From a virus (Duplodnaviria; Caudoviricetes): a stretch of DNA of 64,000 bases. The notes beneath the pieces are model-generated. The model saw only the letters and a list, made by a program, of their open reading frames with translations. It did not search any database and had not been told where the DNA came from. Positions within the stretch are counted from its first letter, which is position 1; every line of letters begins with the position of its first letter. This document shows positions 26,315 to 51,882 of the stretch, one piece after another. The stretch spans positions 1 to 64,000 of IMG/VR virus record IMGVR_UViG_2929656146_000003; one strand, 5' to 3'. Position numbers and translations under genes: made by a program.

Positions 26315-27884
26315 CGGTCGGCTCCGGCGGCACAACGGGGCGACCGGTCATGGCGTCGACTACGGGACCGATGAGGTCCTGCACTTGGGCCTGGTCGATC
26401 GCGCCGAGGGTGACGGCCGCGCCGAGTTTCTGGACGGTGTCGGCGAGGCTGGACAGGTCAGCGAGACGCCGGGTCAGCTCTGCGGCGTCGTCGGTCGGGG
26501 ACTCCAGCCACGCTTCGACCTGGTCGTCGCTGTATCCGGCTTCGACGAGGAGTTGTCGGTGGGGTACGCCGAGTTCGGACTTGACCTTGGCGGTGTCCCA
26601 GCTGTCCTTGTCGTCGACGGTTTCGGCGGCGTGCCAGCGCACGTCGACCACAGGGTCGGCGAATCCGACGAGGTGCAGGGCGAAGCCTTGGGAGTCCTGC
26701 CAGGAGTCGGTGGCGCCTTCCTGCCGGTCCTTGATTTTCTCGACGAACGGGGCGTCCTGCGCACGAACGGATCGGCCGGACGGCTGCTCGCTGGTCGGGT
26801 CGAGCAGGTGGAGCGGCGTGGTGGTCAGTACTCCGATGCTGCGCACATTGAACTCAAGCGGGTCGTAGAACACGGCGGGCTCGGCAGGGTCGAACTGGCC
26901 GACCTGCCGGAACCCCCGCAGCAGCCATACCTCGCCCGGGCCGGACTTGAGGGACGAGTCGTCACCGCTGTCGGACGGGCCGGCTGCGGGGTCTGGGGGG
27001 AAGAGGTCGTCGCCGAAGTCTGCGGGTTCGAAATCGCCCGTGTCGGCGTTCGCTGCGTCGGTGAGGGCGTATCGCTGTGGTACGCCCTGGTAGTCGATGC
27101 CGCCCATGTGGGTGGCGTCGAGCTTGTTGATGGTGTCCTGGGCACCGTAGCCGCGTCGGTGCTCGGGGACGCCGTAGGGTTCGGAGTTGCGGAAGTGGAA
27201 GACCGGGATTTCGCCGTAGTTGTGCTCGATGATCCACGCGTCGTCGTCCGGCTCGACCGTCTCGCCGTCCTCGGTTGTGACCGCCGAGGGCAGCCACGGC
27301 TCCCAGTCCGCACGGGCATTTCCCGCCGAGTCGGCCTTGGTGGTCCAGCGTTCGACGCGGTCGTTGTAGTACAGCTCGGCTCGGTGGATCTGCCGGTCGG
27401 TGTCGACGGTTTCGCACCACCGCTTGACCGCGTATGCCTTCTCGCGAGGGTTCTCGGCGCTGTAGATCATGCGGACGGTCAGCGGGTCGTTGGCGTATTC
27501 GTCGACGCCAGTCACAGTGCTGGCGTCGTCGGTGCGAGGCAGCACGATCAGGTAGGCATCGCCGTACTCGGCCTGCCACTTGTGGACCTTCATGGCCTCG
27601 CGGCGCAATCTGTTGCTGTCCCAGATCCGCTGCAGCGCCTCGGCTTGATCCTGGTCGGGGCTGGTGATGGCGGCGAGCTTCATGCGGTCGACCACGGCGT
27701 CGACGACCATGGCGATGTACGGCTTGCCGTGGTCCATGCCGGTACGGGCGATCGCCCGTCGGACCCGGGCCGAGGCGAACACCTCCGGCACCTCGTCGTC
27801 GTAGTACGCGGCGGCCTCGACGTACGCCGGCCTGGCCTCGCGCAGCGCCTCCAGGCCCATCCACAGGTCGTCGCTTGCGGTCAC
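26307..27884 (-). CDS. Portal protein (SPP1-like)
   Basis: 'MVVDAVVDRM', 'YGDAYLIV', 'HNYGEIPVFHF', 'PSGRSVR'. Confidence 0.93.
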   Translation of the reverse strand: MTASDDLWMGLEALREARPAYVEAAAYYDDEVPEVFASARVRRAIARTGMDHGKPYIAMVVDAVVDRMKLAAITSPDQDQAEALQRIWDSNRLRREAMKVHKWQAEYGDAYLIVLPRTDDASTVTGVDEYANDPLTVRMIYSAENPREKAYAVKRWCETVDTDRQIHRAELYYNDRVERWTTKADSAGNARADWEPWLPSAVTTEDGETVEPDDDAWIIEHNYGEIPVFHFRNSEPYGVPEHRRGYGAQDTINKLDATHMGGIDYQGVPQRYALTDAANADTGDFEPADFGDDLFPPDPAAGPSDSGDDSSLKSGPGEVWLLRGFRQVGQFDPAEPAVFYDPLEFNVRSIGVLTTTPLHLLDPTSEQPSGRSVRAQDAPFVEKIKDRQEGATDSWQDSQGFALHLVGFADPVVDVRWHAAETVDDKDSWDTAKVKSELGVPHRQLLVEAGYSDDQVEAWLESPTDDAAELTRRLADLSSLADTVQKLGAAVTLGAIDQAQVQDLIGPVVDAMTGRPVVPPEPTGD

Positions 27885-27948
27885 CGCGTCCCCTCCTCAG
27901 GTCGCGATCACCGTAGGTCCGGGGTCCGGGCGGGCTGTGAACGGCCGG

Positions 27949-29508
27949 TCAGTGGGTGTAGGTGTGGCTGGTCGCGGTCGGCACAGCACGTTTGGTGGTG
28001 TCGAGGAACCGGGTGACCGCGCTTCCGACGGCGTCGACGAGGTCGTCGTGCGGGGCCCGGGGGAACCCCACCATCTGCTCCTCCAGGTCGCGCAGGGTCC
28101 GGCCGTGGAGGACGCGGCCCCGCTGGTAGTGGTTGAGGGCCCGCGCCGCGCGGACTGTCTTGTGCTCGGATTGGCTGACGGTCTTCACCTTGACGGGCAT
28201 GTGGTGAAAGATCGCGTCCCAGGTGCCGTGACCCTGGTTCACTTCCAGCAGGATCAGCCCGACCTCCGGGTACTCGTCCAGCAGGGCCAGCACCCGTTCC
28301 CGCAGCTTCGCGCCGGGCGGGATCCGGACCGGGATCGCCGCGTGGACGGTGCAGCGGCGGGTCTGCGCGGACCAGGACACGACGGCGAGGCCGGTGTAGT
28401 CGCTGGTGGCCTTCGCGGTGACCGCGGGGTCGATGGAGAGGACCATGTGCGTGACCGGGTCGGGGCCGTCCTCGGGGTAGCGGAAGTCGTCGGCGCACCA
28501 GTAGTCACCGTCGGCGCCGAGCGGATCGTTGGCGTAGTTCTTGGCGAAGCTGCGGGTGTGTTCGATCTTCTTCAGGTAGCTCAGTGGCCACTTCGCCGGC
28601 CACATGCTGCGCTCGGTGCCGTCGTCACGGCGGATGATCGGCAGGCTGTGGTGCGTCGCGAAGCCCTCGTCGGCAATCCACTCCGCGGTCTCCACCCCTT
28701 GGCCGTGCTTGACGAGCTGGTGGACGATGCTGCCGGGCATGGTGACCGTGCCGACGAGGACCACCCTTGCGTAGACGTTGAGGGGCAGGACCGCGTCCCG
28801 CAGGGTGGTGAGCCTCTTCCGGGCCTGGTCGGGGGAGTAGGAGGACTCGTCCGGTTCGACGTCGTCGAGGAGCAGGAGGTCCGGCCTGTGATTGCGCACC
28901 TTGAGGCCCAGGCTGGAGGAGTCCATGCCGCGGGCTGCGAAGGCGAACCCGTTCTCGGCGATGTACATGCGCTGCGTGTCGGCGACGTTCCCGCCGTTCG
29001 GCCGCTTTGCGGGGTTGCACAGTTCCGGGAAGTCGGACCGCAGCTTGTCGTTGTTGTCGATCTCCTGCTTGAACGTCGACAGGTGGGCCTCAGCCTGCGC
29101 CGCGCTGGCGGAGAACGCCGCGGTGAACTTCACCCAGCCATGCGCCGCGGCCCACATCGGCAGCAGCAGAAACCACCACGTGCTCTTGCCGGTCTCGCGG
29201 GGTGCCACGTAGGCGTCCCGCTGCTCCGCCGGCATCGTCGGCGTGCGGATCCAGCGACGGCCGGCGCGGCACCAGTCCAGGTGCGCGTCGCTGAAGGTGA
29301 CCTGGCCCTCGGCGTCCTTGATGTGGTCGCGCAGGTAGACGATCGCGAACAGGGCGGGGTCAAGCCGGGTGAGCGCGCGCCGGCCTTCCGGGTCGTCGAG
29401 CATCCGCGCGTCGGGCACGGTGCGGGCCAGGTACCGGTGCAGGTCGAAGCCCTCGCCGGTGACCCCGGCGAGGTAGGAGTCGACGACACCGGCCGCCAGG
29501 TCCGTCAC
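27949..29508 (-). CDS. terL: Terminase large subunit
   Basis: Walker A 'APRETGKST', Walker B 'LLLLDD', nuclease 'SIDPA' and 'HDDLVDA'. Confidence 0.96.
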   Translation of the reverse strand: MTDLAAGVVDSYLAGVTGEGFDLHRYLARTVPDARMLDDPEGRRALTRLDPALFAIVYLRDHIKDAEGQVTFSDAHLDWCRAGRRWIRTPTMPAEQRDAYVAPRETGKSTWWFLLLPMWAAAHGWVKFTAAFSASAAQAEAHLSTFKQEIDNNDKLRSDFPELCNPAKRPNGGNVADTQRMYIAENGFAFAARGMDSSSLGLKVRNHRPDLLLLDDVEPDESSYSPDQARKRLTTLRDAVLPLNVYARVVLVGTVTMPGSIVHQLVKHGQGVETAEWIADEGFATHHSLPIIRRDDGTERSMWPAKWPLSYLKKIEHTRSFAKNYANDPLGADGDYWCADDFRYPEDGPDPVTHMVLSIDPAVTAKATSDYTGLAVVSWSAQTRRCTVHAAIPVRIPPGAKLRERVLALLDEYPEVGLILLEVNQGHGTWDAIFHHMPVKVKTVSQSEHKTVRAARALNHYQRGRVLHGRTLRDLEEQMVGFPRAPHDDLVDAVGSAVTRFLDTTKRAVPTATSHTYTH

Positions 29509-29511
29509 GGG

Positions 29512-29967
29512 CTACTCCCCGCTGTCGCTGGCCTCATGCCGCTCGCGGCCGTCGAGGGAGTGGTGCGTGACGACCCACATCTGCGATCCGTCCGCGGACT
29601 GCTCGGTGCGCTGCCGGGGCCCGCATGGGCATGCGTCGTGGAGGTCGTGCACGATGAGGTCGTCGAGCGGGTAGGCGTGAACCTCGGCGTCGGTGCTCTG
29701 GACGACCATCCAGGGACCGCCCGCCTGGCCGTCGGCGAGGTCGATGTCGAACTCCTCCACGCACACCTCGGCGCGCAGAAGGACGGTGCCAACAGGGATT
29801 CGGGCCTCGCAGCCGTCGGCGGGCATGACGGCCGGGCCGGCGACGACCTTCCAGCCCTGCAGCTCGACGCGGGCGACGAGGTGCTCGCCGAGCGCGGCGA
29901 TGTAGCCGGGGTCCTCGGCGAGCCAGGACGGGACGAGGGAGTCGAAGGTGTATCGGGTCACGGCCAT
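29512..29967 (-). CDS. Hypothetical protein with H-C-C-H metal motif between terminase subunits
   Basis: 'VHDLHDACPCGP...VTHHSLDGRE'. Confidence 0.7.
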   Translation of the reverse strand: MAVTRYTFDSLVPSWLAEDPGYIAALGEHLVARVELQGWKVVAGPAVMPADGCEARIPVGTVLLRAEVCVEEFDIDLADGQAGGPWMVVQSTDAEVHAYPLDDLIVHDLHDACPCGPRQRTEQSADGSQMWVVTHHSLDGRERHEASDSGE

Positions 29968-29968
29968 C

Positions 29969-30436
29969 TCAGGCGCCGCCCCGGAGCTGGGCCTCTTCGG
30001 CGGCTTGCCTGGCCTTCGCCTCGTTGATCATGTCGCGGAGTTCCAGATCCGTCGCGGACGGCGCCTGCTCGATCGTCACCTCCGCGCGAGTCGGGGCGTA
30101 GAGGCCCTGAACCTTGGCGATCTCCTTGCACACCATCACTGCCACTTCGATCGCCCGCGGCTCGCCCCGGTCGATGCGGGGAGAGAGCCGGGTCAGGTAG
30201 TACTCCAGCCGGTCGACGTGCTGGTCGACCCACAGATCGACCATCTCCTGCTCGGCTTCCTTGGCAGCCCGTCGGGCCCGGGTGAAGTCCTTGCGGGCGT
30301 GGTCGCTGGAGCTGTAGCCGAAGCCGGGGTCGGCTGCGATGTCGTCGAAGCTCCGGCCGTCGATGCGGGCTTGGATCATGCGGGCGCGACGGTCGGCAAT
30401 CTGCACCCTTTCGTAGCGGGTGGTTCCTCCGGGCAC
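29969..30436 (-). CDS. Terminase small subunit-like HTH protein
   Basis: 'RIDGRSFDDIAADPGFGY', 'AKVQGLYAP'; upstream of terL. Confidence 0.78.
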   Translation of the reverse strand: MPGGTTRYERVQIADRRARMIQARIDGRSFDDIAADPGFGYSSSDHARKDFTRARRAAKEAEQEMVDLWVDQHVDRLEYYLTRLSPRIDRGEPRAIEVAVMVCKEIAKVQGLYAPTRAEVTIEQAPSATDLELRDMINEAKARQAAEEAQLRGGA

Positions 30437-30494
30437 GGTTCCTCCTCGGGTCGATCTGGATGATCGCCCGGGGGCCGACAGAGGCTGCGAACGG

Positions 30495-36217: not shown

Positions 36218-38188
36218 TCACTCCTCGGCACCGGGCAGGTAGAACTGCTCGGCCTTGCCGGCCTTGCGTGACTGCACACCGTGGGTCTTCCACAGGTCGA
36301 GGGCCCGGCGGACGGTGTCCCGGCTACCGAACGGCCCCTCTTCGACCAGGCGTTCCTTCGTGGCGTAGCCCTCCTCCTCGCATAGCTGAAGGAAGACCCG
36401 GTACAGGTCGATCCACTCGTCTCGACCGACCATGGTGCCGTCCGGGTAGACGGGCGGCGGCGGACCAACCGGCCGGGCCGGGGCGGGCTTGAACAGGGAC
36501 GCCTGAACTCCGCCCCCGACGGGCCGGGTCTGCGCCGGGGCGGCGGCGTGCAGGTGCGCCACATCTGCGGCGATGTCCAGGTCCGTCACATACTCGGCCC
36601 GGCACTTCGGCGGATCCGTCAACGGCATCTCCGGGCAGCCGATGTAGAACTCGCCTGGTCGGGTGAGCTTCTCCGGCGTGAAGCCGTTGCTCTTGCAGCC
36701 CTGCCCGAAGATGAACACGCTGTGCCCGGCCTCGCCGACCCTGGTCGAGATGCGGTTCGCGTAGTTACCGCGGGCGTCGCTGGACCCGCCGAACACCTTC
36801 GCGGACGGCTGCTGCGTCGCGGACAGGAACATGATCCCCATCGAGCGGGCGATCGCCAGGGCGGACTCGTATGTCGTCGCGATGTCCTGCTCGGGCGGGC
36901 CCATCTCCGGGTCCAGCTTGCGGAGCTCCGCCTCCTGCTTGCGGAGTTCCTCGTCCTGCCGGATCAGCTCGGCGAGTTCGTCGGTCACGACGATCCATGC
37001 CGGGCCGTGGACGCCGGGGATCCACTTGCGGACGGGCTCGCGGCCGGCAGCCATCTCCCTCTTCGACAGCTCCTCCAGGTAGGCGCCACGGCGGTCGCAC
37101 TCCGCGCGGATGTACTGCAGGAGCTCGCGGGCCTCCTCGGCGGTTCGGGCGAGCCTGCGCATCTTCGGCTCCCACGGGCCGAGTTCCACGGCGCCAGGCT
37201 TCATATCGATGCCGAACAGCTCGACGTGCTTCTTCTTCAGCAGCTTCTTGATGATCAGGTTGATGATGCCGGACTTGCCCCAGTCCGATGCGCCGGCGAC
37301 GAGGGTGTGCCGGTACATGACGGTCAGCAGGACGGGCTGCCCGTACTCGGTCCAGCCGAGCCGGATCGGCTTGGTGATGTCGTCGGAGTCGTCGTCGGCG
37401 TACGGGATGACGCGGTCGTGGAACGGGCCGCCCGGGCCCCGGGGCGTCGACTGCTCTTCGGTGCTGCTGGACGCGGAGGCCTTCAGGGCGGCCTGGCCCC
37501 CCTGGTGCAGCTGGACGTCGACGGAGGCGTTGGCCTTCGCCGTGGCGCTGGCTTTCCCCGGCAGCGCCTTGTGGTCCTTGCGGTGCTGGATCAGCCACGG
37601 CACGTACACCGCGTACGCGGCGCCGGTGGTGACCGCTGCGGCGGTGAGGGAGACACCGCCAGGGCCGGTGCCGACAGCGGTGGCGACGTCGGCGAAGGTG
37701 AGCGTCAGGCCGGCTCCGGCCCGTGTCAGCATCTCGTCCTTCTTCTCTACCCCGGCGGCGGTGACCGCTGCACCCAGGACGGCAAGGCCGGCGTACGCGG
37801 CGGTTCCCCAGCCTCCGACACCGGCGAGGTACTGCCACCAGCCGAGACCGGTGACGGCGCCGACGGTCATGGCGGGGGCGAGCTCGACGCGGTACCGGAT
37901 GACGAGGGCGCTGGCCTGGTTGGCGACGGCCACGCAGGCGGCGAGGAACCGCCTGGGCAGGGCTGGCCGGGTCTTCTGGACGACGTAGACGGAGCCCTCG
38001 ACCACCGCCGTCGCGGGTGACGACGAGGCCCCAGTGGACTCGTCGTTTCCTGTTTCCGCAGGTCGCGGCTCTGCGATGGTCGTCGTCATCGGCATCGTCG
38101 GCGTGATCGTCGCGTTGTCCTGCCGCTGGGGTCGGGGGAGGAAGGGGAGGATCTGAGCCCCGTCGGCCGGGGGCAGGTACTGGGCCAC
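36218..38188 (-). CDS. traB: TraB-type FtsK/SpoIIIE conjugative DNA translocase
   Basis: N-terminal TM helices; Walker A 'HTLVAGASDWGKS'; 'GIDMKPGAVEL'; Walker B 'VVTDELAEL'; 'ARSMGI...ATQQP'; C-terminal wHTH-like region. Confidence 0.88.
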   Translation of the reverse strand: MAQYLPPADGAQILPFLPRPQRQDNATITPTMPMTTTIAEPRPAETGNDESTGASSSPATAVVEGSVYVVQKTRPALPRRFLAACVAVANQASALVIRYRVELAPAMTVGAVTGLGWWQYLAGVGGWGTAAYAGLAVLGAAVTAAGVEKKDEMLTRAGAGLTLTFADVATAVGTGPGGVSLTAAAVTTGAAYAVYVPWLIQHRKDHKALPGKASATAKANASVDVQLHQGGQAALKASASSSTEEQSTPRGPGGPFHDRVIPYADDDSDDITKPIRLGWTEYGQPVLLTVMYRHTLVAGASDWGKSGIINLIIKKLLKKKHVELFGIDMKPGAVELGPWEPKMRRLARTAEEARELLQYIRAECDRRGAYLEELSKREMAAGREPVRKWIPGVHGPAWIVVTDELAELIRQDEELRKQEAELRKLDPEMGPPEQDIATTYESALAIARSMGIMFLSATQQPSAKVFGGSSDARGNYANRISTRVGEAGHSVFIFGQGCKSNGFTPEKLTRPGEFYIGCPEMPLTDPPKCRAEYVTDLDIAADVAHLHAAAPAQTRPVGGGVQASLFKPAPARPVGPPPPVYPDGTMVGRDEWIDLYRVFLQLCEEEGYATKERLVEEGPFGSRDTVRRALDLWKTHGVQSRKAGKAEQFYLPGAEE

Positions 38189-38281
38189 GAGGGGCTCCTC
38201 TCGGTACTGGGATGGGGTGGTCTGAGTGCTCGCGGCGGCCGCCCAACCGCAGGGGTTGGGCGTCACCGGCAGGCCGTCAGA

Positions 38282-39649
38282 TCAGCCGTCCGTCCCGGTG
38301 ATCGGCCGGACGTTGTCGGACCCGAGCGCGGCAAGCTCGGGGTGCTCTCGCTCGATCTCCAGCCGGCGAGCGTTCGCGAACTGGCGGGACTTGGGGAGCT
38401 TCGCGGCCTTCAGGGCGGCCACCATCTCGGACTCCAGGGGGCGCCTTCCAAGGTCGGCGTAGAGCGCCTTGATGGCGTCTCGTGCGGCGTCCCGTGGCGC
38501 CGCCGTGGGGCGCCCTGAAGTGGTGGGCCGGGGCGCCTTCGTGGCGCTACGAGGGCGGGCGACGGGGCGCTTCTGGGGCGCTTCAGAAGCGGCATTGGTG
38601 GCGCTCTGACGGGCGCTGTCATAGCGCTCTCGGGGCGCCATAGCGTCGACTGCCGTGGCGCTCTGAGGGCGCTTCACAAGGTCGACGGTGGCGTCATGCG
38701 TGGCGCTCCCGTGGCGCCCCGAAGCCGCTGCCTGAGGCGCTTCCGTGGCGGGTGCGAGGGCGCTTTCGATGGCGCCCCGAATCACTGGTTGGGGCGCCAC
38801 GATGCCGGACGCCATGGCGCTTTCGGGGCGCTCTACGTAGATAGGCGGGAGCGCTTCCGTGGCGCCTTCATGGCAGTCGACGGTGGCGTCCTGAGGCGCC
38901 TCGATGGCGGCCTGTCCGTAGGCCTCGTGCAGCGCTGCGCCGATCGGCTTGCCAAGCTTGGCGAGCCTGATGGCGAGCTGCTCGGGCTTGGTGGCCTGCC
39001 TCTTCCATCCGCGTCCGTAGCGGATCCTGAGCGTGGTGCGGAAGACCTTCGACTCCTGTTCCATCAGGATCACTTCGGTGTAGGAGCGGATGTTCCACAT
39101 GCGCATGCGGCGCCACACGCGGTAGGTCGGCCACGGGGCGAGGAACCAGCGGGGCAGCGGCGGGTTCTCGTAGTAGGCGCCGCTGCTGATCTTCGCCATC
39201 CGGCCCACGGCGTGCCTGCCAGCCTCGACGATGAGGACGAACAGGATGGGCATGGTGGCGTGCATGCCTACGGCGATTTCGTCACCCCAGGAAGCGGCGA
39301 CGTTGAAGGCGATCGTGGCGCCGGTGAGACCCCAGGCCGCGTAGCGCAGTAGGGGGAACGGCATGCGGAAGAAGGTGAGGAGGAGGTCAAGGGCAAGGAG
39401 GGTACCGATGCCGACGTCGACGCCGAGGGGGAAGACGCGGGCGAAGTCGCCGAAGTCCTTCTTGATGGCGAGCCTGACAACGGCGTTGTAGGAGCCTGCG
39501 AAGCCGATGCCAGCGATGGAGATGGCGCCGGCAACGATGGCGCCGATGGTGGCTTTCTGCGGCTTGGTGAGCTCGCGCTTGGTGCGGGCGTCGAGGCCCA
39601 GCGCGGGAGTGGTGGTGAGCTCAGTCTCGGTGTTTGCGATCGGGTTCAC
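38282..39649 (-). CDS. DUF2637 membrane protein (Spd/transfer-accessory type)
   Basis: 'IGFAGSYNAV', 'FPLGVD', 'TIAFN', 'GMHATMP', 'RWFLAPWPTYRVWRRM'; directly upstream of TraB. Confidence 0.82.
   Translation of the reverse strand: MNPIANTETELTTTPALGLDARTKRELTKPQKATIGAIVAGAISIAGIGFAGSYNAVVRLAIKKDFGDFARVFPLGVDVGIGTLLALDLLLTFFRMPFPLLRYAAWGLTGATIAFNVAASWGDEIAVGMHATMPILFVLIVEAGRHAVGRMAKISSGAYYENPPLPRWFLAPWPTYRVWRRMRMWNIRSYTEVILMEQESKVFRTTLRIRYGRGWKRQATKPEQLAIRLAKLGKPIGAALHEAYGQAAIEAPQDATVDCHEGATEALPPIYVERPESAMASGIVAPQPVIRGAIESALAPATEAPQAAASGRHGSATHDATVDLVKRPQSATAVDAMAPRERYDSARQSATNAASEAPQKRPVARPRSATKAPRPTTSGRPTAAPRDAARDAIKALYADLGRRPLESEMVAALKAAKLPKSRQFANARRLEIEREHPELAALGSDNVRPITGTDG
38440..38900 (+). 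repeat. Dense polar GGCGCY hexamer array inside the DUF2637 gene (candidate clt/TraB recognition locus)
   Basis: About 22 GGCGCY copies in about 460 bp by hand count, in all three codon phases. Confidence 0.7.
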
Positions 39650-44160: not shown

Positions 44161-44478
44161 TGCTTGTCCTCCTTCTTGATCGGGTCGATGGGCTTCCGCG
44201 GCCGCGGGATCCTGGGGATGACCGGCCGGTTGTCCCAGTCGGTCACTTCGTGGGCTGCGGGGGGAGGGGCGGGAGGGGCTGGTGGCCGTAGCCGCCGTTC
44301 GTGGAGTGGTCGCCGGCGCCGTCGGCGAAGGCACGGTCGTAGTGCATGGGGTCCTCCTTGCTGGGGGTGATGGTCCGCTGGCCGATCGGGGGAGCCCCGA
44401 ACGCCGGCGAGGGGCGGGACGGCTGCGGGCCGGGTTCAATGGGGTCGAGGCCGGGCCAGCCGTTGTGCGGGTCAGGCA

Positions 44479-44706
44479 TCAGGCGGCGTCCGCCAGGTCG
44501 TGCATCGCCTGGATCTTGGCCGCGACGACCGCGCGGGGGATGCGGATGGCACCGCCGCGACCGGCCTGGCCGCGGGACCACTGCTTGCCGTGGCGGATCG
44601 CTTCGAGCTCTCCGTCCTGCACCCAGCGGTAGATGGTGGGGATGCTGACCCGGAGCGCTTTCGCGACCTCCTTGACGGTCAGGACCGGTGGACTCTCGGG
44701 CAGCAT
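44479..44706 (-). CDS. Excisionase-like HTH (HTH_17) DNA-binding protein, first gene of the leftward arm
   Basis: 'LTVKEVAKALRVSIPTIYRWVQDGELEAIR...IRIP'; AAGGAGG RBS. Confidence 0.88.
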   Translation of the reverse strand: MLPESPPVLTVKEVAKALRVSIPTIYRWVQDGELEAIRHGKQWSRGQAGRGGAIRIPRAVVAAKIQAMHDLADAA

Positions 44707-44751
44707 GCTGAAGCCCTCCTTCCGAGGGGTTCCTCGTTGGCTGATGGACAC

Positions 44752-44791
44752 AACTATATAGGTTCTCTTGAGAAGCTGCAATGTTCTCAGG
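44752..44791 (-). promoter_or_regulatory. Leftward promoter/operator (TTGCAG-N17-TATAGT), copy 1 of a 40-bp element
   Basis: 34/40 identical to the reverse-oriented 47421..47460; AT-rich; GAGAA...TTCTC dyad. Confidence 0.8.
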
Positions 44792-44878
44792 CTGTGTTCG
44801 AGCTACCAGGGCCGCAACCTTGTGCCTTAACTTGAAAGGCGACAAGGTTTCCCGCTCTGTGCCAAAAGGAGGCGACTG

Positions 44879-45421
44879 ATGGCTGACGAAGGCCAGCTGG
44901 ACGCGTCGGCTGCCTACCTCCGAGCACCCACCAGCGGACACCGCGATGCATGGAGCGAGCTCGCACGCGCATCTGGGCGGCAGGGTGGTCAACGGCTGAT
45001 TGAAGTGGGTGAAGTCGAGGCGCCAGAAGGCGTCGCCTGCGCGCTCCGTTTGCCCGTAGGGGCGCTCGTCTCGATCCGGCGCAGGGTGATCACGCTTGAT
45101 GGCCGTGCAGTGGAAGTCGCAAGTTCCTACTACCCGGCCGACATAGCGGCGGGCACTCCGCTGGCGAGACCCGCACGCATTCGAGGCGGGGCTGTGGCGG
45201 TGTTGGCAGCCCTCGGGCACCAACCAGTGGTTGCTCACGAGGAAGTGGCGGCCAGGCCAGTGTCAGCAGCTGAGCTGGAGATCCTTGACGCGAACCCGTC
45301 TGACTGGGTCCTCGATCTCCTGCGAATTGCTCTGGATGTGACTGGGCGCCCTGTCGAGGTCTCTCTGATGACCATGCTGGCCGTTGGCCGGAAGCTCCAC
45401 TACACCGTCGAGATCGGCTGA
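44879..45421 (+). CDS. Stand-alone UTRA-domain protein (no HTH)
   Basis: 'VSIRRRVITLDGRAVEVASSYYP...RIRGG...GRPVEV'; paralog of the downstream GntR C-domain. Confidence 0.85.
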   Translation: MADEGQLDASAAYLRAPTSGHRDAWSELARASGRQGGQRLIEVGEVEAPEGVACALRLPVGALVSIRRRVITLDGRAVEVASSYYPADIAAGTPLARPARIRGGAVAVLAALGHQPVVAHEEVAARPVSAAELEILDANPSDWVLDLLRIALDVTGRPVEVSLMTMLAVGRKLHYTVEIG

Positions 45422-45425
45422 GATC

Positions 45426-46229
45426 ATGAAAGAACACGACATCAGTACCACCAGTGAGGCACCGGACAAGCCGACTCTTGAGCAGGAAAAGGGCGCCTGG
45501 CCGCAACACGAACTCCTGGCGAGCTACCTGCGCGACGGCATCCTGTCCGGCGACTTCCCTGCCGGCAGCCTGCTGCCGTCGACGAGGCTCCTGCGAGAGA
45601 AGTTCGGGGTTGCACCCCAGACCATCAAGCACGCAAATGACCAACTGGCCAGCGAGGGCCTTGTCCGCAGCCACCGAGGCAAGGGCATCATCGTGCTTGA
45701 TCGCCGCCCACAGACCGTGGTGCCTGCGGCGACCAAAAGGCCGGCAAACCCGGGTGACCCGTATCGCTGGATCACCGAAGCATCGAAGAGTGGGCTGCAG
45801 GGAGCGAGTGTCCTTCTCGACGTAGACGAGGTCGTTCCGCCCAAAGACGTTGCGCGGGCGCTCGGACTTGGGGCGAGTGGCGTGGCCCTTCGGCGCGAGC
45901 AAGTCCTCACGCTCGACGGCGAGCCGGCCGAATACGTGAGGGCGTACTACCCTGTGGATATCGCGCGAGGCACTGAGATCGCCGTTCGCAAGCGGATCAG
46001 GGGCGGGACGCCGCGGGTCCTTCAGGACCTTGGGTATCCGCCGCTCAGGTGTGTGGACACTGTTTCGGCGCGTGTTCCGACGCCGGACGAGGTCAAGGCC
46101 CTGGGTACGCCCACCAAGGTTCCAGTCCTCAGGACACTGCGCGTGGTTCACAGCGTTGACGACAGAGTGGTGGAGGTCGCTGTGATGGCGAAGGCAGGCC
46201 ACCTCTACGAGCTGCAGTACGACTTCTAG
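45426..46229 (+). CDS. GntR/HutC-family repressor (KorSA/TraR-like)
   Basis: wHTH 'LRDGILSGDFPAGSLLPSTRLLREKFGVAPQTIKHA...GKG' plus UTRA domain. Confidence 0.9.
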   Translation: MKEHDISTTSEAPDKPTLEQEKGAWPQHELLASYLRDGILSGDFPAGSLLPSTRLLREKFGVAPQTIKHANDQLASEGLVRSHRGKGIIVLDRRPQTVVPAATKRPANPGDPYRWITEASKSGLQGASVLLDVDEVVPPKDVARALGLGASGVALRREQVLTLDGEPAEYVRAYYPVDIARGTEIAVRKRIRGGTPRVLQDLGYPPLRCVDTVSARVPTPDEVKALGTPTKVPVLRTLRVVHSVDDRVVEVAVMAKAGHLYELQYDF

Positions 46230-46252
46230 CCCCTGCGTCGGGAGCGATCAAG

Positions 46253-46286
46253 CTACGGCCCTGCCTTAGTCATGGCGGGGCCGTAG
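46253..46286. terminator. Bidirectional terminator between GntR and MazF
   Basis: CTACGGCCCTGCC-N8-GGCGGGGCCGTAG. Confidence 0.75.
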
Positions 46287-46292
46287 TAGTTG

Positions 46293-46679
46293 CTAGCCGA
46301 GTTCTCCGAGGAGCCCGAATGAGCGGGCCAGGACTGTGTTCAGCTCGGCCATCTGGGGAGGGCGCAGGCGACCAGCGAAGCGTTCGAGGCGGGACTGGTC
46401 GATGGTCATCACCTGAAATCCCAGGATGTCACCGGCATCGGGGAGGGGGTCACCAGCCTGAAGGGTCACCGTGATGGGGGAGGTTTCGCGAACCCTGGTT
46501 GTCATCGCCGCGACGGTCACCGTAGGCATACGGCTATTGAACGAGTCCAGCGAGATCACGACGGCGGGCCGATGGCCGGCCTGCTCTGAACCGCGTGCTG
46601 GGTCGAAGTCCACCCAGTAGATGTCTCCCCGCTGAGGGGACGGCGGCCGCCTGAGAGGCGGAGGGCTCGGTACGGGCAC
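46293..46679 (-). CDS. mazF: MazF/PemK family endoribonuclease toxin
   Basis: 'RGDIYWVDFDPARGSEQAGHRPAVVIS...VAAMTT...QVMTIDQSRL'. Confidence 0.92.
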   Translation of the reverse strand: MPVPSPPPLRRPPSPQRGDIYWVDFDPARGSEQAGHRPAVVISLDSFNSRMPTVTVAAMTTRVRETSPITVTLQAGDPLPDAGDILGFQVMTIDQSRLERFAGRLRPPQMAELNTVLARSFGLLGELG

Positions 46680-46688
46680 TCGGACAGC

Positions 46689-46943
46689 TTAGTACTCGGG
46701 CCACTCCGCCGAACCCGCATCCCATGCGGCCGCAGCCCACTCTGCCGACTCGTCGGCGAATACTGCGAACGCATCTCCCAAGCCATCATCGGGGGACGGC
46801 GTGGCGGTGGCGAGTTCCACCTGTGGAGAGCTTTGCAGGGAGAGGGACAGCCAGGGGAAGCACTCCGCGAGGCTTGCTGACGGTGCGCCGACAAGTGGGT
46901 AAACCACCTGGGCGGAGTTGCTCTGAGAAGGTGCGGTGCTCAT
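46689..46943 (-). CDS. Putative antitoxin (acidic Trp-rich C-terminus, no obvious DNA-binding domain)
   Basis: Directly upstream of MazF; 'FADESAEWAAAAWDAGSAEWPEY'. Confidence 0.65.
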   Translation of the reverse strand: MSTAPSQSNSAQVVYPLVGAPSASLAECFPWLSLSLQSSPQVELATATPSPDDGLGDAFAVFADESAEWAAAAWDAGSAEWPEY

Positions 46944-47290
46944 GGCTGTTCCCCCTGTGCCTCGTCGTAGATCTCGGCCGCCGACTCCAGGATCTTGATG
47001 AGCTCCTGGATACGGTCTCGTGTCAGGACGAATCTGCCAAGAGGTTTCACGGGCAGCTTATGCCCGGATTCGGCCAACCGCTCGACGATCTCTTCGTCCG
47101 AGCCGAACAGTAGGGGTGGCTCAAGGATCCCCATGGTCAGGTAGATGGAGTCTGGCCGGCCTGACGCGTTTGGAACGCCGAGCGCAACGGCGAACTGGTT
47201 GGTCGGTTGAGCAGGGCCGGCGGGGTCTTCCCACACCAGTCGGAACTTCGCGGTGTGTGCCGTGGTGCTCGTGATGGGGGGCTTGGTCAC
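46940..47290 (-). CDS. DUF3467-like protein coupled to the antitoxin (possible chaperone)
   Basis: 'PTNQFAV...IYLTMG..EPP...RFVLTRDRIQELIKIL...IYDEAQG'; ATGA overlap. Confidence 0.6.
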   Translation of the reverse strand: MTKPPITSTTAHTAKFRLVWEDPAGPAQPTNQFAVALGVPNASGRPDSIYLTMGILEPPLLFGSDEEIVERLAESGHKLPVKPLGRFVLTRDRIQELIKILESAAEIYDEAQGEQP

Positions 47291-47420
47291 ACGGACAGTC
47301 TGCCACCGTCAACTGATCAGCATGCAGGCGCCAGCCAGGTTCCGCTGCGACTGGCCACCCTAAGGGGGGAACTGCCACGTATTGGCTGCGCCTGCGATTG
47401 CAGTTCAGGGCGCGCGCAGT

Positions 47421-47460
47421 CCCGAGAACATTGAAACTTCTCAATAGAACCTATAAGGTT
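47421..47460 (+). promoter_or_regulatory. Rightward promoter/operator (TTGAAA-N17-TAAGGT), copy 2 of the 40-bp element
   Basis: Inverted near-copy of 44752..44791; followed by a hairpin at 47483..47507. Confidence 0.8.
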
Positions 47461-47617
47461 TGATGTGCTGCACAACGTAAGACGGCCCCGCAGTAGGTGC
47501 GGGGCCGCGACTTCACCGCGCGTGCAAGTGGCCTGGTAACCGGAACACGCGCAGATCGGAGATCTCCATCATGGCATTCGCCGTCAAGAGCGTCGACGTC
47601 ACCCCGGCGGTGACCCG

Positions 47618-47812
47618 ATGATCGCCGTCACCGTCGCCCGCCCCACCGAGAACACCGCCGTCGGCCTCATGCCGGTCCGTGAGCTCGGCAACCTCGGCGC
47701 CTACCACCTCGCCCGGTTCGCCCTCAAGACCGGGGACATGTACGGCGCCCGCCTGTTCACCAAGAGCTACCTGCGCGCCCTGGCCGGCGGCAAGGTGGGG
47801 GAGTCGCTGTGA
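47618..47812 (+). CDS. Hypothetical protein
   Basis: Coupled small ORF. Confidence 0.6.
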   Translation: MIAVTVARPTENTAVGLMPVRELGNLGAYHLARFALKTGDMYGARLFTKSYLRALAGGKVGESL

Positions 47813-48018
47813 TCACCATGACCGCCCCGCGGATCACCGCCGGCCTCGTCCCCGTCGAGTTCGGCAACCCCGGGCCCGCGATGCACCCCGTGCAGATCGA
47901 CGCCGTCACCCTGATCGTCGGCTACGACCCGCGGGTCCTCGACGCCGACCTCGTTACCACGATCCTGCAGTCCGTGCACGGCGCCGACCTCGTCATCGTC
48001 GAGGAGGTGCCTGAGTGA
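47809..48018 (+). CDS. Hypothetical protein
   Basis: GTGA coupling, GGGGAG RBS. Confidence 0.6.
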   Translation: MITMTAPRITAGLVPVEFGNPGPAMHPVQIDAVTLIVGYDPRVLDADLVTTILQSVHGADLVIVEEVPE

Positions 48019-48212
48019 AGCTCCTCCAGTCCCTCCACAAGGACCAGCCTGGCGCGGCCGCCCAGATCGCCGCGACCGCGGACGACGCCCGCACGCTCGG
48101 CTTCGAGAACGTCGCGACGCACTACGAGCCCCAGACAGGCCACCACACCGTCACGGGTGACCTGCCCGCGGCGACGGCGCAGCGCACCGTCGACCGGATC
48201 CTCGGCCGCTGA
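48015..48212 (+). CDS. Hypothetical protein
   Basis: GTGA coupling, GAGGAGG RBS. Confidence 0.6.
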   Translation: MKLLQSLHKDQPGAAAQIAATADDARTLGFENVATHYEPQTGHHTVTGDLPAATAQRTVDRILGR

Positions 48213-48325
48213 GGCCTGCTTGGGCCGCCCCGTGATGGGGCGGCCCCTCGTTCACCCTCACCTTCGTGTCCAGCTGGAGAAGCCGTGTTCCTGCGTACCC
48301 CTGCCGCCGTACTGGCGGTGCGCTG

Positions 48326-49303
48326 ATGGGGATCAAGCTGGTCGAAGAGGTCATGGACTGGTGTCCGGATGATGTGACGCCAGCGCAGCGCTGGTGTTTG
48401 ACGGTGTTGGCGCGGGATGCGAACGACGCGACCCGGGAGACCTTTCACGGCCCGGAGCATCCCGAGATCCTGCGCCGGGTGCGGTTGTCGGCGAAGCGGT
48501 GGGAGGCGGTGCGGTCGTCGTTGTTGAAGCGGGGGTTGATCGAGCCGGTGTCAGGTGGGTATCGGGGGCGTGCGGGGCGGTATCGGATCGCGTGCTTGTT
48601 CGCTCCGTGTGTGATTGGGGACGGTCGAAAGACCCCTGGTTTTCGGGGGGCTTTCGGTGGCTACCAGCCGGTAAGGGGGCAGAAAGACCCTCAGGTTCCG
48701 GGGGTCAATCACTCTGAAAGCCCCCCGGAACCTGAGGGTCTTTCGTCGGAAAGCCCCCTGGAACCCGAGGGGCAATCGGCCGAAAGACCCCCGGAAACCA
48801 GGGGTCCTACTCCTCCTTCTTTCTCCTCCCAACCACCCTCCTCCCGACCCGCGCCTCCCGAGCCGCCCACCGGACCCGAGCCGGACGACGGACGGGAGGG
48901 CGGGGGGACCGCCTCACGGCGGCAGGACAACCCCGCCTACGCCGCCCTCGCCCGCATCGCAGCCCGCCACCACCAACTCGCCCTCGGCGAAAACGAGATC
49001 GCCACCCTCGCCCCACTCGTCGCCCCCTGGCTCCAGCGGACCACCGAGGCCCGCATGGAGCACGCGATCACCACGGGCATGCCCGCTACCGTCACCAACC
49101 CTGTCGGGTTCCTGCGCCGCCGGCTCGTCGAGAAGCTCCCTCCGCCGCTCGCCGCCGTCCCCGACGAAGAACGCTGCGGTCGCCCGAACTGCGACCCGAT
49201 CACCCACATGGTCACCCTCCCCGGAGGCGACCAAGCGCACTGCGCCACCTGCCACCCCACCGGGCGCGCCCTCGCCCGCCGAGCCCAAGGAACCGCCGCA
49301 TGA
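48326..49303 (+). CDS. Phage replication initiator (lambda O-like organisation)
   Basis: N-terminal wHTH-like region, internal iterons, 'NPVGFLRRRL', coupled to DnaB. Confidence 0.8.
   Translation: MGIKLVEEVMDWCPDDVTPAQRWCLTVLARDANDATRETFHGPEHPEILRRVRLSAKRWEAVRSSLLKRGLIEPVSGGYRGRAGRYRIACLFAPCVIGDGRKTPGFRGAFGGYQPVRGQKDPQVPGVNHSESPPEPEGLSSESPLEPEGQSAERPPETRGPTPPSFSSQPPSSRPAPPEPPTGPEPDDGREGGGTASRRQDNPAYAALARIAARHHQLALGENEIATLAPLVAPWLQRTTEARMEHAITTGMPATVTNPVGFLRRRLVEKLPPPLAAVPDEERCGRPNCDPITHMVTLPGGDQAHCATCHPTGRALARRAQGTAA
48627..48810. repeat. Five quasi-palindromic 29-bp iterons, probable replication origin
   Basis: GAAAG(A/C)CCC...GGG units start at 48627, 48682, 48716, 48749, 48782. Confidence 0.85.
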
Positions 49304-50679
49304 CCGACCACGACGACGACCAGGCCCTCGGCCCCGTCCCGCCGCAGGACCTCCACGCCGAACGCGCCGTCCTCGGCGCCATGCACCTCGCCTCCACCGC
49401 GGTTGCCGATGCCGTCGGCACCGGCCTGCGCGGCAGCGAGTTCTACCGCCCCGCCCACGAAAAGATCTACGACGCGATCGTCGCCCTGTACGCCGCCGGC
49501 GACCCTGCCGACCCGATCACCGTGTCCCGGCAGCTGGCCGTCACCGGCGACCTGGACAGGTGCGGTGGGCCCGGCTACCTGCACACGCTCGTCAAGGCTG
49601 CTCCGGCGGCGGCGAACGCCGAGTACTACGCGGCGATCGTCCGCGAGAAGGCCCGACTGCGTACTCTCGCGGTGGCGTTGAACCGCGGCTCGCTGATGAT
49701 CGCCCAGGCCGAGGGCGATCCGGCCGAGGTTGTCGAGGCGATCCAGGCGGAGATCATTGCCGCAGCCGGGAACCCGGACGGGCCGGGCGCGTCCTCGGTC
49801 GGCCTGGCCGTCGTGCGCGACACCCTGGGAGCTGCTCTCGATGCGATCGAGGCCGTCAACGAGGGCTCTACGCCGATCGGCGTCCCGTGGGGCTTCAGGG
49901 ACCTGGACGCGCTGACCGGTGGCATGCACCCCGGCCAGATGATCGTCATTGCAGGGCGGCCGGGCATGGGCAAGTCCACCGGAGGTATGGACATCGCCCG
50001 GTCCGCCGCGATCGGGCACGGCCTCGGCACGGCGTTCTTCTCGCTGGAGATGTCCCGTGTCGAGATCATGAAGCGGTTGATCTGCGCCGAGGGATGCGTC
50101 CCCCTGCACCACATGCAGGTCAAGGCTGGCATGACGGATGACGACTGGACGCGGGTTGCGAAGGTCATGCCGCGGATCTCGGACGCTCCGCTGTACCTCG
50201 ACGACTCGCCGGACCTGACGATGACGTCGATCCGGACGAAGGCCCGCCAGATCGCCGCTGAGACCGAGTTGAGGCTCATCGTGATCGACTACATGCAGCT
50301 GCTGCGGTCCGGGGGCGGGCACCGCTACGAGTCCCGGCAGCAGGAGGTCTCGGACCTGTCGAGGTCGATCAAGTTGCTGGCGAAGGAGTTGGAGATCCCG
50401 GTGATCGCCCTGTCGCAGCTGAACCGCGGCCCGGAGCAGCGCACCGACAAAAAGCCGATGGCGGCTGACCTGCGGGAGTCCGGGGCGATCGAGCAGGACG
50501 CCGACTTGATCATCCTGTTGCACCGTGAGGACGCCTACGACAAGGAGTCGGCGCGGGCGGGGGAGGCGGACTGGATCGTGGCGAAGAACCGGTCGGGGCC
50601 GACGTCGACGATCACGGTCGCCTTTCAGGGGCACTATGCCCGTTTCGTCGACATGGCTGCGGATCTTCGGGCAGCCTGA
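49300..50679 (+). CDS. dnaB: Replicative DNA helicase DnaB
   Basis: 'PPQDLHAERAVLG', 'AGRPGMGKST', 'FSLEM', 'IDYMQL', 'LSQLNR', 'DLRESGAIEQDAD', 'KNRSGPT'. Confidence 0.97.
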   Translation: MTDHDDDQALGPVPPQDLHAERAVLGAMHLASTAVADAVGTGLRGSEFYRPAHEKIYDAIVALYAAGDPADPITVSRQLAVTGDLDRCGGPGYLHTLVKAAPAAANAEYYAAIVREKARLRTLAVALNRGSLMIAQAEGDPAEVVEAIQAEIIAAAGNPDGPGASSVGLAVVRDTLGAALDAIEAVNEGSTPIGVPWGFRDLDALTGGMHPGQMIVIAGRPGMGKSTGGMDIARSAAIGHGLGTAFFSLEMSRVEIMKRLICAEGCVPLHHMQVKAGMTDDDWTRVAKVMPRISDAPLYLDDSPDLTMTSIRTKARQIAAETELRLIVIDYMQLLRSGGGHRYESRQQEVSDLSRSIKLLAKELEIPVIALSQLNRGPEQRTDKKPMAADLRESGAIEQDADLIILLHREDAYDKESARAGEADWIVAKNRSGPTSTITVAFQGHYARFVDMAADLRAA

Positions 50680-50913
50680 CCACCATCACCGAAAGGAGCG
50701 CCATGAAGCGCGAGTTGAACATCATCTGCCAGACCTGACGAGGATCCGCCAGCGTGCTGACCGGCGGCCTGTGACGAGAGCGCCCCACCGTGCTTGGGAC
50801 ACGGTGGGGCGCTGCGGTGTTCGGCGGGCAACGTGAACACCTCGGGGTGACCACCCCTCGTGCCGTGGAACGCTACGCCTGCGGAACGGGGGAGTCCACA
50901 TGTTGCGCAGCAG

Positions 50914-51261
50914 TCACTGCCGTGGCGGCCGGCCCCACGTCGTGTGCGTCGGCATCTGGCCCGGGCCCGGGGGATGCCCCATCCCGCCGTTGCTGTCGTG
51001 CTGTGGCGGCCCGAAATAGCCCGGCTGCCCCGGAGGTCCACCAGGGTCCTGAAAGCCCGTGTACGGGCCCTGTGGGGCCGCGACCGTCACCGTAGTCTTC
51101 GTCTTCCGGCCCATCGCCGCCGCGATCGGCCAACCAGTGATCGCCCACAGGCCACACGTGATGATCGACAGAAACACGTGCAAGCCGTGGTTCGCACCCC
51201 GCTTCGTCACCCGCGTCTGCCGCTGCGGACCAGGCGGGGGAGGGTAGTTCTGGTAGGACAA
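50914..51261 (-). CDS. Small membrane protein with Pro/Gly-rich tail; paralog of 350..649
   Basis: 'NHGLHVFLSIITCGLW'; ends WGRPPRQ. Confidence 0.72.
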   Translation of the reverse strand: MSYQNYPPPPGPQRQTRVTKRGANHGLHVFLSIITCGLWAITGWPIAAAMGRKTKTTVTVAAPQGPYTGFQDPGGPPGQPGYFGPPQHDSNGGMGHPPGPGQMPTHTTWGRPPRQ

Positions 51262-51349
51262 GGCGCTGCTCCTCGACTCCGGAGAACTGACTCGCCGAGC
51301 CTCCCAGGACCCACCCCCGGCCCGTCGGCGACGTGATGAACCTGTGACG

Positions 51350-51877
51350 TCACCGCACCCCAGCCGACTCCCGCGCCACCAACTCGCCCGCCTGCAACCG
51401 GCAATCCCGCCACACCACGAACCACCGCCGCCACGCCAGATACTGCGCCTCGCGGTCGAACCACGTCTCCAACGGCAACCGCTCCGGACACCCGTCCGGC
51501 AACGGCGCCACCCACTCGATGTTCGCCGCCGGCAACTCCGCGCGGATCACCTCCCGCTCCACGGCGATCGCATCGTTCCCGCCGCACTGCAGCCACTCGA
51601 CAGTCGTCCGCGACCGGTCCACGTCCCGCCACCACGGCGTCGCCTTGCGGTGCTCCCGGAACCGGCGCTCCGGCGCCGTCGACAAGCCGACATACAGCAG
51701 CAGCCCGTTCCCGTCGTACAGCCGGTACAGGCCCGTCGGGCCATTCCAGAACGCGGCGTTGCGGGCCGCCACCTTCACGTCCCAACAGGGCCGACACCGG
51801 TCACCGGGCCACCGGCCGGGAGAGTGCTGGCCGCAGTCACGGCAAGGGCCGGCGCCCTGCGATCCGAGGAGCTCCAT
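51350..51877 (-). CDS. GIY-YIG nuclease family protein
   Basis: 'GLYRLYDGNGLLLYVGLS...RRFREH...E..I..E.P..N'. Confidence 0.82.
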   Translation of the reverse strand: MELLGSQGAGPCRDCGQHSPGRWPGDRCRPCWDVKVAARNAAFWNGPTGLYRLYDGNGLLLYVGLSTAPERRFREHRKATPWWRDVDRSRTTVEWLQCGGNDAIAVEREVIRAELPAANIEWVAPLPDGCPERLPLETWFDREAQYLAWRRWFVVWRDCRLQAGELVARESAGVR

Positions 51878-51882
51878 TCAGG

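Follow-up and report, generated by a model that had tools for sequence, protein, structure and literature searches.

RESULTS

A phased GGCGCY array lies inside an spdB2-like gene next to traB

The stretch of DNA analyzed here, in the following referred to as the window, comprises positions 1 to 64,000 of the virus record IMGVR_UViG_2929656146_000003 (Duplodnaviria; Caudoviricetes). On its minus strand, a gene for a DUF2637 membrane protein, probably related to the SpdB2 proteins of actinomycete conjugative elements, is followed 15 nt after its stop codon by a gene for an FtsK/SpoIIIE-like DNA translocase with the architecture of actinomycete TraB proteins. The 3'-terminal part of the spdB2-like gene harbors a dense array of the hexamer GGCGCY, which is the subject of this work (Table 1).

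On the plus strand, positions 38440-38900 contain exactly 22 copies of GGCGC[CT], 10 of them GGCGCC and 12 GGCGCT, against 2.3 per kb elsewhere in the window, which corresponds to about 1.06 per 460 bp, and a genome-wide density of 3.1 per kb. AGCGCC, the reverse complement of GGCGCT, is found once on the plus strand of the array, at 38463. These numbers bear out a preliminary description of the sequence, which had put the array at about 22 copies in about 460 bp where one or two would be expected, with about 12 copies of GGCGCT and about one of its reverse complement. The same description had many copies 11-13 bp apart, which is true of 8 of the 21 spacings but incomplete: the remaining spacings are 22-23 bp (nine), 34 bp (three) and 56 bp (one), with about 11.4 bp as the common unit of them all. 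In a Rayleigh scan, the 22 positions gave a peak at 11.37 bp with R = 0.97, while the 95th percentile for 22 random positions, with all periods scanned, was R = 0.58. When an 11.33-bp grid was laid over the region, the slots ran from 38441 to 38911, with their quality following a good-good-weak rhythm that gives rise to a 34-bp super-period. Read with its flanks on the coding (minus) strand, the word is approximately RRRGCGCCMC(g). The 42-nt units of the array are only 61-71% alike while the cores are perfect.

The array is the top short-repeat cluster of the window and the sole dense same-strand repeat cluster near traB, and no second 460-bp stretch with this kind of array was found in the 9.1-Mb genome. 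The next-richest GGCGCY clusters of the genome, with 19, 17 and 12 copies, are in-frame tandem repeats of 9, 18 and 15 bp (in G000, C7:81677, 9 bp x 12; C3:259172, an 18-bp collagen-like GAxGSPGAN-type repeat; and C17:5537, 15 bp x 10). The proximal end of the array (38440) lies 174 bp from the GTG start codon of traB (38266), and its copies span 174-645 bp upstream of traB; the distance of 250 bp given initially is only approximate.

Table 1. Features of the array-bearing locus, with coordinates in the window
Feature	Position	Strand	Properties
Phased GGCGCY array	38440..38911	+	about 42 slots, 11.37-bp period; 22 perfect copies, about 9 one mismatch off
DUF2637/SpdB2-like membrane protein gene	38282..39649	-	455 aa; hosts the array; assigned by Pfam and phrog matches
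N-terminal helical domain (predicted membrane domain)	38879..39565	-	residues 29-257; AlphaFold 2 (AF2) predicted local distance difference test (pLDDT) score about 85-97
Predicted disordered linker	38498..38878	-	residues 258-384; pLDDT 36-50; holds most of the array
Conserved C-terminal four-helix domain (CTD)	38321..38497	-	residues 385-443; pLDDT about 90-97; candidate array reader
traB-like FtsK/SpoIIIE DNA translocase gene	36218..38266	-	682 aa; Pfam FtsK_SpoIIIE, E 8.7e-7; phrog_1358, E 1.2e-21
TraB C-terminal winged-helix region	36221..36415	-	recognition helix GSRDTVRRALDLW; rival candidate array reader
GntR/UTRA regulator gene	45384..46229	+	usual traB partner in kil-kor pairs; context only

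The array is under DNA-level constraint

As had been noted from the sequence, the word is read in all three codon phases: on the coding strand, the 22 copies are distributed 9/7/6 over the phases and are translated as SA(T/M/L/R) and GA, as (E/K/V/M/A)AP, or as (K/E/G/R)R(P/H). The word cycles through the three frames because neither the 11.4-bp nor the 34-bp period is a multiple of three. We compared the array with three kinds of shuffled sequences, each in 5000 replicates, none of which reached 22 copies. Permutation of synonymous codons within the region yielded 6.46 ± 1.96 copies (mean and standard deviation; maximum 13), in line with the enrichment over a codon-shuffled control that the preliminary description had anticipated. 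Synonymous resampling from the local codon usage gave a mean of 5.5 copies and shuffling of the codon order a mean of 1.9. As all three controls fall short of 22, codon choice and peptide sequence alike are biased towards the word.

The base composition of the gene changes along with the array. GC contents at the first, second and third codon positions are 0.59/0.49/0.90 in the N-terminal domain, 0.74/0.64/0.76 in the linker and 0.73/0.47/0.94 in the other flanking domain, so that the third-position value falls from 0.90 and 0.94 to 0.76 within the array. Over the array segment, the gene's own frame contains no stop codon, and the other five frames contain one to seven. The array RNA (466 nt) is predicted to fold at -228.7 kcal/mol, compared with -198.4 ± 6 kcal/mol for shuffled sequences (z = -5.05; none of 100 shuffles as stable).

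The array therefore exists and is under DNA-level constraint. Based on the shuffling controls, the non-triplet period and the conservation in relatives (see below), the original proposal of a dual-coding cis site, with the DNA and not the peptide as the target of selection, is well supported.

The array fills a predicted disordered linker in an SpdB2-like protein

The only Pfam match of the 455-residue protein is DUF2637 (PF10935; E 3.5e-28, residues 38-192); in addition, the protein matches phrog_29003 (E 4e-80) and, over residues 53-236, shares 53% identity with gp24 of Streptomyces phage VWB. Thoma et al. (2015; PMC4447253) cite two phages, one of them VWB, for putative SpdB2 homologues, and the name SpdB2-like is used here because of that citation, by way of VWB gp24 and not of SpdB2 from plasmid pSVH1. 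Assignment to the SpdB2 type rests on the homology to VWB gp24 together with the position of the gene next to traB. An AlphaFold model, built from 51 homologues, shows long helices at residues 29-63, 69-93, 99-119 and 124-155, which, with the Pfam match, identify a DUF2637 integral-membrane domain whose location in the membrane is predicted.

The N-terminal domain and the CTD are connected by the predicted disordered linker, in which most of the array resides. As the array fills this linker, it is translated, but presumably in a part of the protein that tolerates sequence change. It also runs on into the CTD, the invariant residues of which include L396, Y397, R403 and P404; slots 0-4 overlap with the codons for its first helix and for the invariant R-P. 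Beyond the array, a 34-nt imperfect inverted repeat (38215-38287; 71% complementary, 5-nt loop) extends over the spdB2-like stop codon and the traB start, where it might influence termination or the coupling of the two genes.

When folded alone, the CTD was predicted by AF2 with a pLDDT of 85. The best Foldseek match of this model was the weakly scoring LexA DNA-binding domain (E 2.1). An exhaustive structural aligner (VIA) returned mostly winged-helix regulators, with DriD, BrxR, MecI, PadR, Lrp/AsnC and ScpB among the neighbors, at Z scores of 5.2-6.5, a weak range that can reflect a common arrangement. A search against the sequences of the PDB gave nothing below E 0.06. The predicted structure is consistent with, but no more than consistent with, a helix-turn-helix (HTH) or winged-helix domain.

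Phased arrays precede the same CTD in related loci

The CTD family comprises 53 proteins which, by their source names, stem from Kitasatospora, Streptacidiphilus and Streptomyces, and in which the CTD is joined to at least three kinds of N-terminal membrane domain. At the DNA level, a phased array precedes the conserved CTD in six loci besides that of the window (L003). G064, which has three identical copies of the locus (L009, L011 and L012), contains 17 RGCGCC (the word on the coding strand) at a best period of 11.30 bp, and the metagenomic locus L149 contains 19 at 11.33 bp; neither number was reached in 2000 synonymous shuffles. The locus from S. aurantiogriseus (L114) has 14 copies with a period of 11.42 bp (R = 0.98). 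A second metagenomic locus, L150, has 10 copies (R = 0.96; 27 of 2000 synonymous shuffles as rich), and G247 and G309 (L021) have six each, with R = 0.96 at the pre-set period of 11.37 bp. Only three RGCGCC copies are present in L151, and the L152 locus is cut off.

Between the window and G064 (L009), the CTDs are 74-79% identical, while only about 35-40% of the linker residues are shared. Column conservation in an alignment of the array DNA was left uncounted, because an aligner lines up repeated cores unaided. For relatives represented by their proteins, we used a peptide proxy, in which the readings SA/GA, [KEQRGW]RP and xAP were mapped to nucleotide positions and the 11.37-nt period was tested against residue shuffles, with at most 15 of 300 shuffles as good counting as a pass. 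Of 52 relatives, seven had no anchor recognizable by regular expression; among the 45 anchored ones, 30 passed, with best periods of 11.28-11.48 nt, and 15 failed.

L114 was found by the DNA pattern alone. Among the 119 pattern matches listed, it was the only one with homologous proteins; the other 118, all genome contigs, proved unrelated when TraB, the DUF2637 N-terminus and the CTD served as tblastn queries. Eighty of the 119 listed matches (L023-L102) were screened for arrays. A few of these carry tandem repeats of another kind: L035 (Sorangium sp., 1848-2296, chromosome) has 27 GGCGCY at a period of about 10.7 bp, and L097 (Cupriavidus sp., 4562-4760) has an exact 11-bp-phased tandem repeat; homologous proteins are absent nearby in both cases. 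A search with the C-terminal alignment pattern in genome and viral contigs produced no confirmed relative, and tblastn with the C-terminal 219 residues against 72,556 plasmids gave no match.

The three identical G064 copies of the traB locus with its array (C1:8485203-8487095, C2:858181-860073 and C4:36679-38571) include two near contig ends, and could originate from terminal inverted repeats, a plasmid copy or an assembly effect. In G309, a gene with T5orf172 and MUG113 domains (L021, 3872-4642, minus strand) is located between the array-bearing DUF2637 gene and a divergent gene for a TraB-like protein of 690 residues. The same two Pfam domains are present in P0048, a 256-residue protein matched in the CTD search, which suggests that the CTD is also fused to a T5orf172/MUG113 nuclease-like family.

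The word follows the CTD of its own gene, not TraB

Helix α3 of the TraB winged HTH reads 8-bp repeats (PMC3583192), and TraB is the rival candidate for a reader of the array. Among 166 other genomes of the genus, 7 encode TraB homologues at 53-76% identity. Four of these homologues, from loci with another word (L004, L005, L007 and L010), have the recognition helix SRDTVRRAL in common with loci that carry a GGCGCY array (L003, L009 and L020). In the four, the gene upstream of traB ends in a different small helical domain and no GGCGCY array was detected within 20-30 kb; instead, GATGCG/CGCATC occurs 11-18 times in the last 540 bp of the upstream gene (0 of 2000 synonymous shuffles as rich), in either orientation and in more than one frame, which accounts for about half of its copies over 20 kb. 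These clusters (about 920-1480 of each locus, in the sense of traB) include GATGCGCATC palindromes. A third word, GAGCGC/GCGCTC, is found in L006 (about 650-1420) with 28 copies, again unmatched in 2000 synonymous shuffles. A GCGC core is common to the GGCGCY, GATGCG/CGCATC and GAGCGC/GCGCTC words.

Three pairs of nearest TraB relatives have different motif clusters (L003-L004, 80% identity; L009-L010, 75%; L006-L008, 90%), and the last 72 residues of the L009 and L010 TraB proteins are 73% identical although their motifs differ. Conversely, G333 encodes an unrelated TraB-like winged HTH, yet has a CTD helix, SRSYANARRLEI, close to that of the window and retains 13 RGCGCC (0 of 2000 synonymous shuffles), with a looser spacing of about 11.7-12 bp. 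G309 encodes another divergent TraB-like protein and still keeps its sparse phased RGCGCC set.

We also searched 16 window proteins in the loci of the relatives, and none was confined to loci with GGCGCY arrays. The GntR/UTRA regulator does not track the motif, as homologues are found near traB in loci of both array types. The CTD of the DUF2637 gene is the sole tested component that always accompanies the motif. From the TraB and CTD comparisons, and because none of the 16 neighbors is restricted to these loci, we conclude that the word follows the CTD of its own gene and not TraB. The preliminary description had considered both TraB and the CTD as readers and had proposed to check whether homologous DUF2637 genes carry element-specific k-mers co-varying with the TraB winged HTH. 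Such k-mers do differ between elements, but they co-vary with the CTD of the upstream gene, so that, judged from sequence comparison, TraB fits poorly and the CTD appears the better candidate. A finer co-variation, a weak hint from two clades only, may exist at the base after the core, which is C in 24 of 25 copies accompanied by the CTD helix SRQH-ANKLR and A in 23 of 60 copies accompanied by SRQF-ANARR (L003, L149 and L009; 24 of 67 if L020 is added).

Two further candidates for element-specific arrays were rejected. In phage VWB gp24 (L001, 5908-7224), almost all enriched k-mers (CGMACCCG) are in one codon phase because they encode in-frame EVEP/AP peptide repeats. In L008, the enriched words stem from AEAE peptide repeats, of which 19 out of 25 share a single phase. 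In VWB, the frame annotated as gp25 (7250-8500) translates to an arginine/proline-rich string and looks like a wrong frame.

The array and traB reside in a prophage-like element

Downstream of the array/traB module, the minus strand (10900-30450) encodes a terminase-like open reading frame (ORF), a portal protein, a capsid protein and a tape-measure-like ORF of 1273 residues. The upstream region (44400-55600) encodes an excisionase-like HTH protein, the GntR/UTRA regulator, a MazF/PemK-like toxin, a DnaB helicase, an endonuclease VII and a GIY-YIG protein. G095 and G113 display the same gene order (gntR, xis, spdB2-like, traB, p148, orf966, terL, portal), with terL 91% and 50% identical, respectively. 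No integrase or att site was detected in the window ORFs scanned, and the sequence search revealed no tRNA and no Rfam family. The element looks like a member of a temperate-phage family that carries a conjugation-type DNA pump.

DISCUSSION

A candidate membrane tether for the element's DNA

The array always travels with the CTD encoded directly behind it and not with a particular TraB. We tentatively favor, at somewhat less than even odds, the idea that the array is a dual-coding cis site read by the CTD of its own gene, which would tether the element to the membrane and to the TraB machinery. The array would be a protein-docking site at the level of DNA, placed in the linker-coding part of the spdB2-like gene, and its most likely reader would be the small, HTH-like CTD encoded immediately after it. 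With the N-terminal DUF2637 domain seated in the membrane, the long flexible linker would allow many CTDs to coat the roughly 470 bp of the array, one per 11.4-bp slot and mostly in adjacent pairs within each 34-bp unit. On DNA with about 10.5 bp per turn, a spacing of 11.4 bp would turn each site by about 30° relative to the last, so that the CTD coat would be helical, each turn taking up about 12 sites (136 bp). Such a coat might anchor the element's double-stranded DNA where SpdB2-type proteins and the TraB pump come together in a membrane complex, and thereby serve transfer or intramycelial spread. CTD binding, the geometry of the coat and its role in tethering or handover are all parts of this proposal that we infer. 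A precedent is SpdB2, a pore-forming, oligomeric membrane protein that binds double-stranded DNA, contacts TraB and is required for spread; these experimental properties are reported for pSVH1 SpdB2 only (PMC4447253).

Several observations weigh against reading by the CTD. The binding of SpdB2 to double-stranded DNA has been called non-specific in the account cited (PMC4447253). The CTD is not covered by any Pfam or NCBIfam family, and structure comparison gave only weak matches (E > 2 with Foldseek; Z no higher than 6.5 with VIA). The CTD of the window type and the domain of the GATGCG loci have no detectable homology (hhalign probability 0.4%). The GATGCG and GAGCGC clusters lack periodicity and have copies in either orientation, so that a single rule covering all families is not established. 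For G247 and G309, copy number by itself does not exceed that of synonymous shuffles (197 and 185 of 2000 as rich, respectively), and the counts across relatives overstate independence because the relatives are kin. The stability of the array RNA likewise exceeds that of shuffles. Finally, as array and CTD adjoin in one gene, their co-occurrence may be simple linkage by descent; linkage, however, does not explain why a dense DNA-level word cluster is found at this position in every lineage and changes with the CTD.

A more far-reaching version, which we regard as possible but rather doubtful, holds that SpdB2-type proteins are specific binders, each lineage having a private "centromere" in its linker-coding DNA that is read by its own CTD, and that the coat is a real transport handle. 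The lattice of about 470 bp with its 11.4-bp period would then nucleate a helical, membrane-anchored coat. If so, the coat would be the handle by which TraB-type plasmids, actinomycete integrative and conjugative elements and TraB-bearing prophages are moved from cell to cell and within the mycelium, and the linker would be dictated by a DNA code in three frames, an unusually long and clean case of dual coding.

Alternative readers and functions

The array could instead be the clt of the element, the site at which TraB hexamers load on direct repeats via their C-terminal winged helix. We consider this unlikely, and less likely than reading by the CTD, even though the array is next to traB, is the only dense same-strand cluster there and resembles known clt loci, in which short direct repeats cluster beside tra or extend into it (PMC3583192, PMC4447253). 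Nor was another candidate found: no multi-copy repeat was found at the classical clt position downstream of traB, no common 8-mer was found in the traB 3' regions of the relatives, and 10 copies of the pSVH1 TraB recognition sequence (TRS) octamer in the form searched are scattered over the window (6.4 expected) without forming a cluster. With about 42 slots, however, the array is far larger than any of the clt sites cited here (PMC3583192, PMC4447253). Moreover, TraB proteins with one and the same recognition helix, or with closely similar C-termini, stand beside different words, while G333 and G309 keep the RGCGCC word beside quite different TraB-like proteins.

It is less probable still that a third DNA-binding protein of the element or its host, such as a partition or segregation adaptor, a nucleoid protein or a restriction-modification component, reads the array while the CTD merely rides along. 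Direct iterons of 10-12 bp are typical of plasmid centromeres that build helical coats, the RGCGCY core is a degenerate palindrome of the kind that restriction enzymes cut, and a C-5 cytosine DNA methylase gene is present at 61334-62290 (minus strand). Yet none of the 16 neighboring proteins tracks the array type across relatives, no ParA-, ParM- or ParR-like gene was among the approximately 32 window ORFs put to Pfam, and a host factor would leave unexplained why the motif changes with the CTD inside one genus.

A signal in the mRNA, either a structured GC-rich stretch that tunes translation or stability before the toxic traB or a site for an RNA-binding protein, appears very unlikely. The array RNA folds better than shuffles and ends 174 nt before traB, in the same direction of transcription, but any array with a GCGC core should gain such stability, and a strict 11.4-nt lattice of one polarity is a feature of double-helix geometry and not of RNA folding. 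In addition, the dominant word, AGCGCC, is not self-complementary, and there was no Rfam match (best E 0.47, far below the gathering threshold).

Least probable of all is that the array has no function as DNA and is a decaying slippage or duplication product in a tolerant low-complexity linker, or the result of selection on the peptide: while the linker is predicted to be disordered and the linkers of homologues carry ordinary in-frame peptide repeats (VWB gp24 and L008), a single duplication of a 34-bp unit would shift the frame, perfect cores in dissimilar 42-nt units are the opposite of recent duplication or concerted evolution, word and period persist across loci with strongly diverged linkers, and three different peptide motifs would each need selection to spell one hexamer on a lattice of 3.79 residues.

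Implications

How double-stranded DNA is selected and handed over to the TraB pump, and how Spd proteins move DNA through the compartments of a Streptomyces-type mycelium, is only partly understood. A large, conserved and lineage-specific site in an spdB2-like gene could tie the spread machinery to a specific cis site. In addition, the array is a striking natural case of a protein segment that is largely dictated by a DNA-level code read in three frames, and it marks a family of prophage-like elements with a conjugation-type pump.

Comparison with known systems

The closest precedent is SpdA2, which binds sps palindromes inside its own coding sequence and whose plasmid became less stable when these were synonymously recoded (Thoma et al., 2014; PMC4170104). 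As in the window, a spread-type gene of a TraB-type element (Streptomyces plasmids, pIJ101) holds a short DNA word in its own coding sequence. The sps, as described in that account, is a 12-bp palindrome in two or three copies, in one frame (encoding SRDD/E), and is read by a small soluble protein (PMC4170104). The window differs in having about 42 phased slots, a polar word of 6-10 bp, three frames and a location in a DUF2637 linker, with the CTD as its putative binder; the 12-bp sps palindrome has no match in the window with up to one mismatch allowed.

TraB loads on clusters of short direct repeats, for example nine 9-bp repeats in pJV1, four 7-bp repeats in pWTY27 and the 8-bp TRS in pSVH1 (PMC3583192, PMC4447253). 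The array shares with the clt/TRS of pSVH1, pJV1, pWTY27 and pIJ101 that a cluster of short direct repeats stands beside an FtsK-like tra gene on an actinomycete element, and in the pWTY27 clt, which, as cited there, includes 16 bp of traA, the repeats also reach into coding sequence. Unlike clt, the array has 5-10 times more copies on a strict 11.4-bp lattice, is upstream of traB inside another gene, and, by the indirect measure of sequence comparison, its word does not co-vary with the TraB winged helix.

Plasmid centromeres such as ParR/parC of R1 and pSK41 and TubR/tubC consist of 10-12-bp direct iterons on which a helical protein coat assembles that is gripped by another machine. They resemble the array in their many same-sense short repeats spaced close to one helical turn apart. 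Centromeres of this type are non-coding and located beside par operons, whereas the array is coding, its candidate binder is a predicted membrane-anchored protein and the partner would be a DNA pump. The λ origin, with four iterons of about 19 bp and an AT-rich region inside the O gene, serves replication. If the array is bound by the CTD, the two have in common that the repeats for a DNA-binding protein are embedded where its own gene encodes the linker; unlike the origin, the array has no AT-rich stretch and is about 10 kb away from replication genes.

The preliminary description had also drawn an analogy to the FtsK-orienting polar sequences (KOPS), which, like the SpoIIIE recognition sequences, are read by the γ domains of FtsK/SpoIIIE. 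A polar short word and an adjoining FtsK-family motor are indeed common to both, but the analogy does not hold further: KOPS are dispersed and strand-skewed over the replicon, while the array word is concentrated in one 470-bp block and shows no strand skew in the window outside it (37 GGCGCT versus 35 AGCGCC).

No account of such an array was found in the literature searched, the coverage of which excluded subscription papers and supplements. The principle has precedents in SpdA2/sps, clt and iteron centromeres; the scale and phasing of the array, its dual coding in three frames, its host gene and the apparently lineage-specific words seem to be new.

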